DNA of 64,000 nt from a virus. Taxonomy: Duplodnaviria; Caudoviricetes. The translations under genes and the position numbers were made by a program. Location of the stretch: positions 46,765-110,764 of IMG/VR virus record IMGVR_UViG_2706795367_000001. One strand, written 5' to 3'. A model generated the notes under the pieces. That model was not told the origin of the DNA. It saw only the letters and a program-made list of their open reading frames with translations, and searched no databases. Below are positions 9,834 to 54,829 of this stretch, one piece after another. Position 1 is the first letter of the stretch. Every line of letters begins with the position of its first letter.

Positions 9834-10100
9834 CCGACAGCACTATGCTCCGCGAAGCGGCCATCAAGAAGCTGATGGACATTCAGGAGGCGTGTCGCGC
9901 CGAACTCTTGCAGCACCCGATGCGGGCGTACCGCGGCATCAGCCTCGCCAACGAAATCCTCGACATCATCAAGGGGGAGTGATGACTACCCAGGCGATCA
10001 TCTTCTTCTCTTCCGTGGCAATGGTTCCGGCCCTCGCCTTCGTTATCGGCGGCGCGCAGGCCTGGGCTGAGCGGTGGTCTTATCGACGGGACTTCTGGCG

Positions 10101-10478
10101 ATGAGGACCTGCACGATTCCGGGGTGCGAGAAGAAGCACCACGCTCGCGGCTTCTGCGTCGTGCACTACCAGCGGTGGAGGCGGCGCTCCGACGAGCCCC
10201 GCGGCAACTACCGCCGTAACCATCGGCCGGATTGCAAGCTGGAATGGTGCAACGGGCGGTTCTACGCCAAGGATCTCTGCCGGTTCCATCACCAGCGTCT
10301 CCTCCGTGGCAAGGCCATGGACGACCCGCGCGGCAACGTCGGGATCTTCGATTGGGCGGCGTGCGGGACGCCGGCGCAATACAGGAAGCACTTCCGGCAC
10401 GGCATCCCCTTGTGCGACGCATGCCGGAAAGCTGAGAGTCGACGTCAGAAGGACCGCCGCGAGAAGGCAAAGCGATGA
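10101..10478 (+). CDS. multi zinc-finger protein
   Basis: CxxxxC..ARGFC..HY repeats and CGT...H...CDAC. Confidence 0.7.
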   Translation: MRTCTIPGCEKKHHARGFCVVHYQRWRRRSDEPRGNYRRNHRPDCKLEWCNGRFYAKDLCRFHHQRLLRGKAMDDPRGNVGIFDWAACGTPAQYRKHFRHGIPLCDACRKAESRRQKDRREKAKR

Positions 10479-10789
10479 AAGATTCTTCCGAACCTTTACG
10501 GGGATCTGATCGTCCCAATGCTAAAGTTGACCTTGAGCAAATCCTCGGAAACTGGAGGCCAGCGTGTGGATTGCGGGAGGACATGCCAGCGCTTCCGGTG
10601 TGCGGGAATCCCGCCACGCACGTACTCAACTTTCATGGCGGACATTTTGTTCATCTGACTTGCATCCCCTGCTACTACCTCTACATGGAGGCAATCCGTC
10701 AGGGGATTGAAACATTCCCCAAGGTGGAATGCACCGCCTGCGGAGAAGGCGTAGATGCACTCGTTCATCTCAAGCTAACTCCGCTCTAA
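10475..10789 (+). CDS. hypothetical Cys-rich protein
   Basis: ORF, ATGA overlap. Confidence 0.65.
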   Translation: MKDSSEPLRGSDRPNAKVDLEQILGNWRPACGLREDMPALPVCGNPATHVLNFHGGHFVHLTCIPCYYLYMEAIRQGIETFPKVECTACGEGVDALVHLKLTPL

Positions 10790-10827
10790 GAAACTTCCCC
10801 GGCCAAGAGCCGGCGGGCAAAACTTAA

Positions 10828-11026
10828 AAGCTTCAACCGGCGGAATGCCAGCTCCCTCCCAAGTAGACGGGGGTGACGATTCCATCAGCCTTTAGGTGCC
10901 GTACGAAGCGTTATATGTGTGACGGGTTAAGTGCTACAGGGGCCTGAAAAGGCCGCCCGCGGGGACATAGAAACCTCGCCGTTAGCCGCAAGGCGCGTAG
11001 ACCCACTTCGGTGGAGGATTAAGCTT
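10828..11026 (+). ncRNA. putative structured ncRNA (~200 nt, possibly raiA-like)
   Basis: AAGCTT/AAGCTT closing stem; hairpins GGCC-TGAAAA-GGCC, GCC-GCAA-GGC, CCAC-TTCG-GTGG; no credible CDS. Confidence 0.6.
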
Positions 11027-11054
11027 ACCCATTTTCTTTGCAGAGAAATCTGCA

Positions 11055-11115
11055 GCGCACGGCCGGAATGGTTCGGCACGAATTCGTCAAGGTTCAAATC
11101 CTTGCGTGCGCACCA
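11055..11115 (+). ncRNA. tRNA-like mini RNA lacking an anticodon loop
   Basis: GCGCACG/CGTGCGC acceptor + ACCA; T-arm CAAGG-TTCAAAT-CCTTG; D-like arm GCCGGA-ATGG-TTCGGC; stub ACGA-AT-TCGT. Confidence 0.75.
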
Positions 11116-11175
11116 GTCGCGGGGAGTCGAGCCGGCTTGTTCTAGCCGAGTGTCGGTTCCTCCCCGCGATTTTTT
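11116..11175 (+). terminator. intrinsic terminator-like hairpin
   Basis: GTCGCGGGGAG...CTCCCCGCGAT followed by TTTTT. Confidence 0.6.
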
Positions 11176-11201
11176 GTACCCAAAATCAGGGAGGTTCGCC
11201 C

Positions 11202-11501
11202 ATGCTCGGACGTTTCACTGAAGATCAGCAAGTTCTGCTCGCCTGCTACTGGGCGCTCTCCGACGCCCACCCGCCTCACAAGGGCGAGCTGCGAAAGATG
11301 TTCCGCAGCAAGGTGGATACCTCAACCGCGGAGCACGCGGTGATCTCCGCCCGCCGCGCCGAGGACTTCCACATCGGCATCGCCGGGGCCCTCACCGAAC
11401 TGTCCAAGGCCACCCAGAAATACCCCCGCTACGCCTTCGACCGTTTCCGTCGGGGGACGGGCGTTCCCAACCATCGCAAGGTGCGGGTCCGTGACAACTG
11501 A
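11202..11501 (+). CDS. hypothetical protein
   Basis: GGGAGG RBS before ATG. Confidence 0.7.
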   Translation: MLGRFTEDQQVLLACYWALSDAHPPHKGELRKMFRSKVDTSTAEHAVISARRAEDFHIGIAGALTELSKATQKYPRYAFDRFRRGTGVPNHRKVRVRDN

Positions 11502-19866: not shown

Positions 19867-20156
19867 ACCTTCAGTCCGGATCTCAAATCATCTACAAGCG
19901 TGGTGACGACGAATGGGAAGCGGTAGTCGACAGCGTTGAATACACCTCGTCAACCCCTGCCGTCTACGCGGAGTTGACGAGGCGGCAGAAGATCCTGCGC
20001 GCGCTCACCCCCAAGCGCTGGCGCAAGCCCATCCCGATCGTCCGGGAGGCCCGGGGGCCGGAGATCCGAATCAACACCGTGGACATGTGGCACCAGCGGC
20101 GGCGCGATGAGCGACTAGCCGAATGGCTGGACGCGACCTCGGCGCCCCACGAATAG
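19863..20156 (+). CDS. hypothetical protein
   Basis: ATGA overlap. Confidence 0.7.
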   Translation: MNLQSGSQIIYKRGDDEWEAVVDSVEYTSSTPAVYAELTRRQKILRALTPKRWRKPIPIVREARGPEIRINTVDMWHQRRRDERLAEWLDATSAPHE

Positions 20157-20164
20157 GAACTGAT

Positions 20165-21118
20165 ATGGCCACGAAGCTGTGGGCAATGAGGGGCTTTAGC
20201 GGAAGCGGGAAGAGCCGCCGGGCCTGGGAAATCGCCAACCAGAACGACGCCGTCGTCGTCAACCGAGACATGCTCCGCATGCAACTCCTCGGCGAATGGT
20301 GGACGGGAGATAAAGAAGATGAGGATCGCGTTACGACTGCCGAGGAGGCGCAAGTTGTCGCTTTCCTCAAGTCCGAGACCTCGGTCGTTATCGACAATAC
20401 GCACATCAACCCTGCTTATCTCCGTAAGTGGGCGCGCCTTGCGACGCGTCTGGGTGTTGAGTTTGAGGTAGTCGACGTTCACGCCGACGTGGACGAGTGC
20501 AAGCGCCGCGCCTACCAGCGCTGGGAAAACGAGATGGGCACACCCCTCGCCCGGTATCTGGACCCCAAGGTGATTGAGCAGCAGGCCAAGCGCTTCCCCG
20601 TGGAGAAGTGGCCGGCGGTGACCGCGGAGCCGTTCATTCCGGAACCTGTGGAATACGACGGCACCCTCCCCAGGGCCATCCTGGTGGACATCGACGGCAC
20701 TGTTGCCAGGAACGTCAGTCGGTCGCACTACGACTACACGAAAGTCCTCGAGGACGAGGTTCACGAGGAGATCGCCTGGTTGGTGAGGGTGCTGTTCTGG
20801 CTTCGGTACCCCACCCACAGCCAGGGGGAGCCCGAGATCATCTTCATGTCGGGCCGCGACCACACCTGTTACGACGACACGGTTGCATGGCTGAATCAGC
20901 ATGACATCCCGTTCGATCGTCTGATCATGCGCCCGGCCGACGCCAAGGATGAGCGCGGAAATAAGCTCCCCGATTACCTAGTTAAGTACCGGCTTTTCAA
21001 TGAGCATATCCGGGACAAATTCGACGTTCTTTTCGTGCTGGATGACCGTCAGCAGGTTGTGGACATGTGGCGAAAACTCGGACTGAAATGCCTTCAGGTA
21101 GCCCCGGGGGATTTCTAA
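20165..21118 (+). CDS. pnk: polynucleotide 5'-kinase/3'-phosphatase (T4 Pnkp-like)
   Basis: P-loop GFSGSGKS, NRD, HAD DIDGT, SGR, DDR, C-terminal VAPGDF. Confidence 0.93.
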   Translation: MATKLWAMRGFSGSGKSRRAWEIANQNDAVVVNRDMLRMQLLGEWWTGDKEDEDRVTTAEEAQVVAFLKSETSVVIDNTHINPAYLRKWARLATRLGVEFEVVDVHADVDECKRRAYQRWENEMGTPLARYLDPKVIEQQAKRFPVEKWPAVTAEPFIPEPVEYDGTLPRAILVDIDGTVARNVSRSHYDYTKVLEDEVHEEIAWLVRVLFWLRYPTHSQGEPEIIFMSGRDHTCYDDTVAWLNQHDIPFDRLIMRPADAKDERGNKLPDYLVKYRLFNEHIRDKFDVLFVLDDRQQVVDMWRKLGLKCLQVAPGDF

Positions 21119-54598: not shown

Positions 54599-54829
54599 TC
54601 AGCACTCGATTCCCGTTGTCCAGGCGCCGTAGGTAGCGCTGGACGTGTGCGGCACGCCGTCTTGGTCGATAAAGATTGACCACAGTTCGCCCCCGTCGGA
54701 ATTGCCCACCATCCCCACGGCGCTGCGTCCGTCGGGCGTGTAGAGCCATTCAATATCGGGCGTGAGAGCGTCCCAGAATGCGACGGCTTCGGACAGTTCG
54801 GGCAGGGTGTCAATCTTGGTTGTGTTCAT
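54599..54829 (-). CDS. hypothetical protein
   Basis: GGAGG RBS. Confidence 0.65.
   Translation of the reverse strand: MNTTKIDTLPELSEAVAFWDALTPDIEWLYTPDGRSAVGMVGNSDGGELWSIFIDQDGVPHTSSATYGAWTTGIEC

Follow-up and report, generated by a model that had tools for sequence, protein, structure and literature searches.

What does the gap between gp109 and gp111 of a mycobacteriophage encode? The gap lies in the 64,000-nucleotide stretch of DNA analysed here, called the window throughout. An earlier note, made from the letters of the window, had read positions 10828-11054 as one ornate RNA of about 200 nt and had likened it to the raiA motif. Our comparison of the locus between phages identifies it as a genuine gene for a folded non-coding RNA, carried by Cluster J and Cluster X mycobacteriophages.

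Extent, coding status and relatives of the locus

The source is a Cluster J (Omega-like; genus Omegavirus) mycobacteriophage and its virus record is complete, with 110,764 bases. When positions 10700-11260 were compared by BLAST with 50,697 phage records, only Cluster J Mycobacterium phages were matched. The matches to Omega and Hannaconda have about 99% identity, and position 10700 of the window falls on Omega 62,261. The rightward early region runs from the immunity repressor through a cro-like HTH gene, an esterase, an HNH endonuclease and gp109 to the gap and on to gp111. The RNA locus belongs to the first part of a rightward operon that spans about 50 kb and holds more than 100 genes; the cro-like gene lies upstream of it, at a distance of about 3.5 kb or eight to nine genes.

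The gene-free conserved block spans 10838-11115 and its flanks are unrelated. In BLAST comparisons, about 40 Cluster J records conserve 10838-11114 as a block while their flanks diverge. Apart from Omega and Hannaconda, about 35 Cluster J records are only some 82% identical to the window and match exactly 10838-11114, with the match ending at both edges. As a conserved non-coding unit the stretch named in the earlier note therefore stands, but its end does not, as the RNA continues to 11115 and the terminator to 11175.

Two early annotations, those of Omega (gp110) and LittleE (gp104), call a protein-coding gene here, and a 96-codon open reading frame does cover 10931-11221. These calls are not conserved, and most Cluster J records carry no annotation at the RNA locus. 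The lineages differ by indels of 2, 4 and 6 nt, paired substitutions between them preserve helices, and the reading frame would cross both the tRNA-like fold and the terminator. On the indels and the paired substitutions we rejected Omega gp110 as a real CDS, and we regard the chance that the locus is a protein-coding gene as negligible. The spurious CDS calls, Omega gp110 and LittleE gp104, can thus be corrected.

The evidence for the fold is comparative, not thermodynamic. Folding z-scores were +0.12 for 10838-10915, -0.37 for 10916-11036 and -1.38 for the whole RNA, and the fold energy of the flagged part is no better than chance in GC-rich DNA. We used covariation among about eight sequence types, namely Cluster J, WXIN, the Cluster X phages Gaia and Nebkiss, and metagenome relatives. 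The core contains 12-13 compensatory pairs and the tRNA-like module 13. Covariance models were built, as the earlier note had suggested, and both the core and the tRNA-like module show covariation.

The RNA was present in 43 of the 50,697 phage records. WXIN, a phage of Mycolicibacterium septicum, carries a divergent copy with insertions. A scan of metagenomes gave two real relatives (L028 and L029), and contig look-ups with the gp111 protein as the handle added the lineages L035-L045, L047, L048, L050 and L051. With L050 as the BLAST query we matched the Cluster X phages Gaia and Nebkiss (genus Gaiavirus), both of which score 38.7 bits for the core (model R2) and 54.1 bits for the tRNA-like module (model R1). 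By these matches the RNA family spans mycobacteriophages of Cluster J (Omegavirus) and Cluster X (Gaiavirus) and uncultured relatives. When just the core or just the tRNA-like module served as BLAST query, Cluster J alone was matched, apart from T-arm noise, and pattern and protein scans of IMG/VR returned only known Cluster J genomes. An exact-pattern scan of 185,579 species genomes, with a pattern that misses the L047 and L050 types, gave 12 matches, all by chance, whose surroundings do not resemble the RNA; it revealed no copy in bacteria or prophages.

A free-standing gene for an HNH endonuclease or a WhiB-like cysteine-rich protein is found just 5' of the RNA in every lineage (10074-10478 in the window), with equivalents in WXIN, L029 and Gaia. 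In WXIN its 3' end is overlapped by the promoter motif and the first RNA hairpin.

Architecture of the RNA

The RNA is modular: its 5' junction domain evolves fast, and this is followed by the five-helix core, which is highly conserved, by a P6 arm that varies and by a 3' module. The features of the locus in the window are the following.

10824-10832, plus strand: degenerate extended -10-like motif TTAAAAGCT, aligned with the upstream motifs of relatives; candidate promoter remnant
10838-10901, plus strand: 5' three-way-junction domain, from the minimum-energy fold and compatible substitutions
10902-10918, plus strand: variable linker or short hairpin ahead of the core; a hairpin in every lineage, of differing sequence
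10919-11030, plus strand: conserved core, GTGAC and then a five-helix junction, from covariance model R2 and covariation
11039-11054, plus strand: P6 hairpin TGCAGA-GAAA-TCTGCA, from sequence and fold; directly abuts the tRNA-like module
11055-11115, plus strand: anticodon-less tRNA-like module of 61 nt, from model R1, covariation and a sub-threshold mascRNA match
11117-11175, plus strand: intrinsic-terminator-like long hairpin TCGCGGGGAG...CTCCCCGCGA followed by TTTTTT; fold -33.2 kcal/mol, z = -5.6
11202-11501, plus strand: gp111-family gene, 99 aa, PHROG 6612, downstream of the RNA in every lineage; candidate partner

The most conserved part of the RNA is the core, not the tRNA-like module. 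Its helix P1 pairs 10924-10927 and 10929-10931 with 11024-11030 and closes a junction of four hairpins. H1 pairs 10941-10944 with 10951-10954 and is flanked by GG and GCCC; H2 pairs 10959-10964 with 10974-10979 around the 9-nt loop ACATAGAAA; H3 pairs 10985-10987 with 10992-10994; and H4 pairs 11003-11006 with 11011-11014. The joining strands CGTTA, GCGTAGAC and AGGAT are near-invariant. Folding of the single sequence yields the same core helices. A pairing of the H2 loop with TGTGT 5' of GTGAC was also considered and dropped, being inconsistent across lineages.

Model R2 was built from the window and LittleE with the proposed structure, and it recovers the core in all lineages (12 sequence types, 32-156 bits, with Gaia and Nebkiss as given above). 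In the model-fitted alignment 99.6% of the cells pair and 13 of the 26 pairs change on both sides, compared with 0-2 in slid controls and none of 500 shuffles. Since the R2 alignment is fitted to the model, we repeated the count on a plain MAFFT alignment. There 85.0% of the cells pair against 75.7% when shuffled, 12 pairs are double-changed, a count that none of 500 shuffles reaches, and the covariation score reaches 0.329, whereas slid controls give 0.137 at most. P1 alone occurs as AAG/CTT, AAA/TTT, AAAGG/CCTTT, AGTT/GACT and AAGTTT/AAACTT.

These helices bear on the pairings proposed in the earlier note. Its three capped hairpins were all recovered: GCC-GCAA-GGC (10985-10994), CCAC-TTCG-GTGG (11003-11014) and TGCAGA-GAAA-TCTGCA (11039-11054). 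The closing stem that it drew between AAGCTT at 10828 and AAGCTT at 11021 was not. The CTT of the 3' copy sits in the covarying P1 (10929-10931 with 11024-11026), and the 5' copy lies upstream of the start of conservation and overlaps the degenerate -10-like motif.

In the 5' domain, the closing stem CGGC/GCCG pairs 10838-10841 with 10898-10901. Within it are the stem GGAAT/ATTCC (10842-10846 with 10879-10883), which the note had also seen and which Baka-type phages keep as GGGAT/ATTCC, a C-rich/G-rich hairpin at 10851-10874 with an AAGTAG loop, and the small hairpin GCC-TTTA-GGT at 10888-10897. The note's pseudoknot between GCCA and GGTG finds no place here: the two words are not complementary as written, and GGT and GCCG are taken by the small hairpin and the closing stem. 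Baka and LittleE show few substitutions, and these agree with the fold (A-U to G-U; loop TTTA to TTCG or CTCG), and WXIN has the counterparts GTAG/CTAC and AATTC/GAATT. Because the lineages diverge strongly, the support for this domain is only moderate.

Upstream of the RNA, an extended -10 motif is kept in six of eight lineages. The matching site is TGATAAGCT or TGGTAAGCT in WXIN, Gaia, L037 and L038, TGCTAAACT in L050 and TGATATTCT in L051. Promoter activity in the window is uncertain since its motif TTAAAAGCT has lost two key positions. The motif of the Baka type is likewise degenerate, and a consensus scan of the window locus gave no sigma-70 promoter. As a candidate promoter, TTAAAAGCT would start transcription near 10838-10841.

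On the 3' side of the core, the base of P6, GCAG...CTGC, is retained in WXIN, L050 and Gaia, where it encloses an added module. The position is occupied by CCGCG-TTCG-CGG in L051 and by CAGC-loop-GCTG in L037. P6 directly abuts the acceptor stem in five of six lineages. The recurring insert consists of (A)ATACGGG, a variable hairpin, ACACCACC-loop-GGTGAGG and an A-rich strand (L004:2085-2159, L048:1-166, L050:470-549, L053:1590-1659). It is single in WXIN, L050 and Gaia, a tandem double in L048, and absent from the window, Baka and L051.

The module that follows has a perfect 7-bp acceptor (GCGCACG/CGTGCGC), the D arm GCCGG-AATGGT-TCGGC with GG in the loop, the T arm CAAGG-TTCAAAT-CCTTG, and a 3' end with discriminator A and CCA. 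The 10-nt mini-hairpin ACGAATTCGT replaces the anticodon and variable arms. Its resemblance to a tRNA thus includes the 7-bp acceptor, the GG of the D loop, a TTCRANT T loop and compensatory changes. It departs from canonical tRNA (RF00005) in its anticodon arm, which across variants is a mini-hairpin of 10-16 nt or an unpaired linker. Together with P6 it folds with z = -4.17. With model R1 the module was recovered from Cluster J, WXIN, L048, L050, L051 and Gaia; 94% of the cells of the alignment pair, and 13 of 23 pairs are double-changed, compared with 0-3 in slid controls and none of 500 shuffles. Four distinct, fully Watson-Crick acceptors occur (GCGCACG, GCGCGCA, GGACATC and GCACACA), and the D and T stems covary.

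Variants have either A or G as discriminator, and some of them (the window, Thibault and Bobby) encode CCA while others do not. This variability, together with the lack of a G3:U70 pair, argues against a specific aminoacylation identity. Three lineages (L037, L038 and L047) have a plain hairpin of 11-12 bp in place of the module, which means that tRNA mimicry is not essential to the RNA family. We rejected the L037-type hairpin as a tRNA minihelix: it aligns as acceptor plus T arm at 7 bits against 6.7 for the reverse strand, a likeness of geometry only. The tRNA-like end is not an integration site either, because the attP core is located elsewhere, at Omega 54,667-54,710, which is 7.7 kb from the RNA locus (PMC3706429).

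ARAGORN and Rfam call only tRNA-Gly and tRNA-Tyr in the window, both away from the RNA locus. A second anticodon-less tRNA-like element is found at 44671-44739 (plus strand), about 330 nt 5' of tRNA-Gly. Its 5' acceptor strand is GCGCACG, as in the module of the RNA, and one pair of its acceptor stem is mismatched. A GAGA-capped stem of 7 bp takes the place of the "anticodon arm", and the T loop reads TTCGATT. It scores 21.6 bits (E = 0.0018) with the tRNA-like model and 19.8 bits with Rfam tRNA-Sec, and ARAGORN makes no call. At 46138-46219 (plus strand), directly upstream of tRNA-Tyr at 46241, there is a match to Rfam DUF3800-IV RNA that stays below threshold (42.9 bits, where the cut-off is 60.7; E = 3e-5).

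The gp111 neighbour and the possible roles of the RNA

An equivalent of the terminator-like hairpin is found in Baka, WXIN (with no T run), L037, L050, L051 and Gaia. A simple terminator scan missed it in the window because its loop is long. The ribosome-binding site of gp111 comes about 25 nt after it, which leaves no room for a promoter between them. A tblastn search of the 50,697 phage records gave gp111 in 43, which equals the count for the RNA, and the breakdown by host is also the same. The order RNA, terminator, gp111 is kept in all lineages. In a large protein collection the RNA stands upstream in all ten inspectable gp111 clusters, a count that is partly circular since gp111 was the search handle; L029, which was found through the RNA alone, also has gp111. 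In Hannaconda an insertion of 283 nt with the small gene 92 lies between terminator and gp111 (L011:773-1055), and the RNA is intact.

The gp111 protein is small and basic, with the conserved tail KY.R..FD..RRG.GVP.HR.VRV. Its AlphaFold2 model is poor (pLDDT 61), with three helices and a low-confidence basic tail. The protein matches no Pfam family, PHROG 6612 has no assigned function and the protein atlas gave no lead. That gp111 would bind the RNA and act as its partner is suggested by their adjacency, a part of which comes from loci fished out through gp111.

With roughly even confidence, we propose that the locus yields a separately transcribed phage RNA that works with gp111 and has a tail recognisable by tRNA-processing enzymes. 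The RNA would be transcribed early in lytic growth as its own unit, and most transcripts would end at the terminator 11117-11175. Host tRNA-processing enzymes would recognise the tail. RNase P would cut at G11055, so that the upstream RNA would have the blunt P6 hairpin at its end, and 3' trimming and CCA addition would take place at 11111-11115. This processing would set and protect the RNA ends, as mascRNA does for MALAT1. The conserved core would be the working part, acting with gp111 as an RNA-protein pair on some target. No expression data for Cluster J or X phages were found in the searchable literature.

Processing of the mascRNA type by RNase P and CCA addition is suggested by the suitable acceptor stem and by the CCA encoded in some variants. 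Several points speak against it. The tRNA-like module is absent in L037, L038 and L047, and both the CCA and the discriminator vary. In addition, the -1 nucleotide to the module, A11054, is base-paired within P6. A base-paired -1 nucleotide is unfavourable for bacterial RNase P, so the tail may stay attached. Given the degenerate promoter here and in the Baka type, the RNA may alternatively be cut from a long early transcript.

A bolder version, which we hold only tentatively, is that the RNA and gp111 make up an undescribed device. The core would be a new functional fold, e.g. a polymerase- or ribosome-directed regulator or a scaffold, and the 3' cassette, interchangeably tRNA-like or a hairpin, would hand the RNA to host tRNA maturation. 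Should the core turn out to control the early operon or to be a binder of some host machine, the RNA would represent a new functional class.

The main rival to the separately transcribed RNA is a cis-acting leader. In this case the folded RNA, perhaps bound by gp111, would let RNA polymerase read through 11117-11175 and later terminators. This would be processive antitermination of the put, EAR or nut type, with the arginine-rich tail of gp111 acting like lambda N on nut. The strong terminator that separates the RNA from gp111 and leaves just some 25 nt after it fits such a role, as do the constant order of the three elements, the small gp111 with its conserved basic tail, and the position near the start of the long operon. 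The stable modules between core and terminator would also suit a polymerase-modifying RNA, and they speak against a simple riboswitch. However, with 280-450 nt and a tRNA-like module the RNA is far more elaborate than known antitermination RNAs, and Rfam reports no put, EAR or nut similarity. Moreover, the locus is some eight or nine genes past the cro-like gene and not at the operon start, and Hannaconda has an extra gene between terminator and gp111. We consider a leader rather unlikely.

Phage tRNAs are known counter-defence tools, and the tail could be a tRNA-shaped decoy. It would soak up defence enzymes directed at the acceptor or elbow, or be repaired instead of the host tRNAs that they hit, and the upstream domains would merely add stability or extra binding sites. 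The tRNA-like fold is maintained through compensatory changes, the same phage has the second anticodon-less element at 44671-44739, and it encodes the RNA-repair enzyme Pnkp at 20123-21118. Some Cluster J phages have a Thg1-like tRNA 5'-end repair enzyme, and Cluster J phages also encode an RNA ligase (PMC3706429). The decoy ranks lower than the leader because conservation is strongest in the core and not in the tail. Three lineages wholly lack the module, anticodon nucleases would find no anticodon loop to recognise, neither the acceptor sequence nor the discriminator base is conserved, and the Thg1-like gene is absent from the window phage and most of Cluster J. A decoy role is improbable.

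Gene 112 of Hannaconda (L052:17640-18341), annotated as "tRNA nucleotidyltransferase", is a homologue of Thg1-like tRNA-His guanylyltransferase. The gene is found in seven mycobacteriophage records, including Hannaconda, Bombitas and Kalah2, and is widespread in large phages of many hosts. A link between the RNA and this "tRNA nucleotidyltransferase" was rejected, given its Thg1-like identity, its seven records and its absence from the window; we saw no correlation.

Comparison with known structured RNAs

Large RNAs such as raiA, GOLLD and ROOL are a few hundred nucleotides long and have many conserved junction nucleotides, and GOLLD and ROOL occur in phages near tRNA genes. The phage RNA shares their size class and conserved junctions, and the earlier note had seen a resemblance to blocks of the raiA motif. 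We ran Rfam 15 on the whole window at gathering thresholds and on 10700-11260 at E<=10 with permissive filters, in the latter case by cmscan with all 4227 families. We also ran it on four homologous loci at E<=5 (L002, L004, L028 and L029, from Baka, WXIN and the metagenome homologues). The raiA link did not survive: none of the three runs gave a match to raiA, GOLLD, ROOL, tmRNA, T-box or YrlA/Y RNA. ARAGORN called neither tRNA nor tmRNA at the RNA locus, and no tmRNA in the homologues. The complete phage genome has no Ro60/TROVE gene (PF05731). We therefore rejected membership in any of these families, T-box included. A divergent member of raiA or of another catalogued large RNA family (GOLLD, ROOL, tmRNA, YrlA type), favoured only by the resemblance of sequence blocks seen in the note, the ornate look and the phage setting, is very improbable. 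The RNA differs from raiA, GOLLD and ROOL by the lack of any sequence or structure match, by another helix layout and by its range, i.e. actinophages of two genera and relatives. The other possibility raised in the earlier note, a new RNA class, fared better: this is a structured RNA, supported by covariation across phage lineages, and its family is found neither in Rfam 15 nor in the searchable papers.

The sole Rfam match in 10700-11260 was mascRNA-menRNA (RF01684) on 11055-11111, with 25.5 bits and E = 0.0065 against a gathering threshold of 42.5. The homologues in Baka (23.3 bits) and WXIN (20.7 bits) are likewise below threshold. As in vertebrate MALAT1 and MEN-beta, a long structured RNA carries at its 3' end a small tRNA-like cloverleaf with a reduced anticodon arm, and a protective structure lies directly 5' of the RNase P site, which in the phage RNA is predicted. 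In contrast to MALAT1/mascRNA, the phage score is below the 42.5-bit cut-off, the setting is a phage and not the vertebrate nucleus, and the upstream structure is a hairpin and not a triple helix. The likeness is an analogy, not homology. If the device reading is true, it would be a bacterial-virus counterpart of the MALAT1-mascRNA arrangement. The locus could be the first bacterial-virus case of RNA end formation through a tRNA-like tag.

Some mycobacteriophages carry tmRNA (SsrA), which like the phage RNA is an RNA of about 300 nt that joins an anticodon-arm-less tRNA-like part with other structured domains. In tmRNA the two ends of the entire molecule pair to form the acceptor, whereas the phage module is self-contained at the 3' end with a local acceptor stem (11055-11061 with 11105-11111). 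It also differs by the missing G3:U70 alanine identity pair (3:70 is G-C or A-U in all variants), by the negative ARAGORN and Rfam results and by the absence of a conserved tag frame. The one short frame, GCC GTT AGC ... TAA, is without its stop codon in Thibault and WXIN, and it runs into covarying hairpins.

Y RNAs of the YrlA class have a tRNA-like domain with D and T arms and are found in Mycobacterium smegmatis and some mycobacteriophages (Chen et al. 2014, PMC4201824). YrlA with Ro60/Rsr (RF02553) resembles our case as a non-coding RNA with a tRNA-like domain and one paired protein. Unlike YrlA, the phage RNA has no Rfam match, its phage has no Ro60/TROVE gene and its partner protein is unrelated. 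The tRNA-like domain of YrlA is internal and closed by the Ro-binding stem, while the phage module is 3'-terminal and forms a complete cloverleaf whose acceptor end is free.

With their use in teaching and therapy, mycobacteriophages are among the best-sampled phages and are thought to be almost purely protein-coding besides tRNAs and tmRNAs. Here two of their genera have an unannotated multi-domain RNA gene with a fixed protein neighbour and a tRNA-mimicking end. Since phage engineering is available, Omega, LittleE or Gaia on M. smegmatis would be a tractable model for phage tRNA mimicry outside translation. A structured RNA that carries a tRNA mimic is a known kind, as tmRNA, YrlA and MALAT1/mascRNA illustrate; what is new is the core fold, the complete 3'-terminal cloverleaf and the pairing with gp111.
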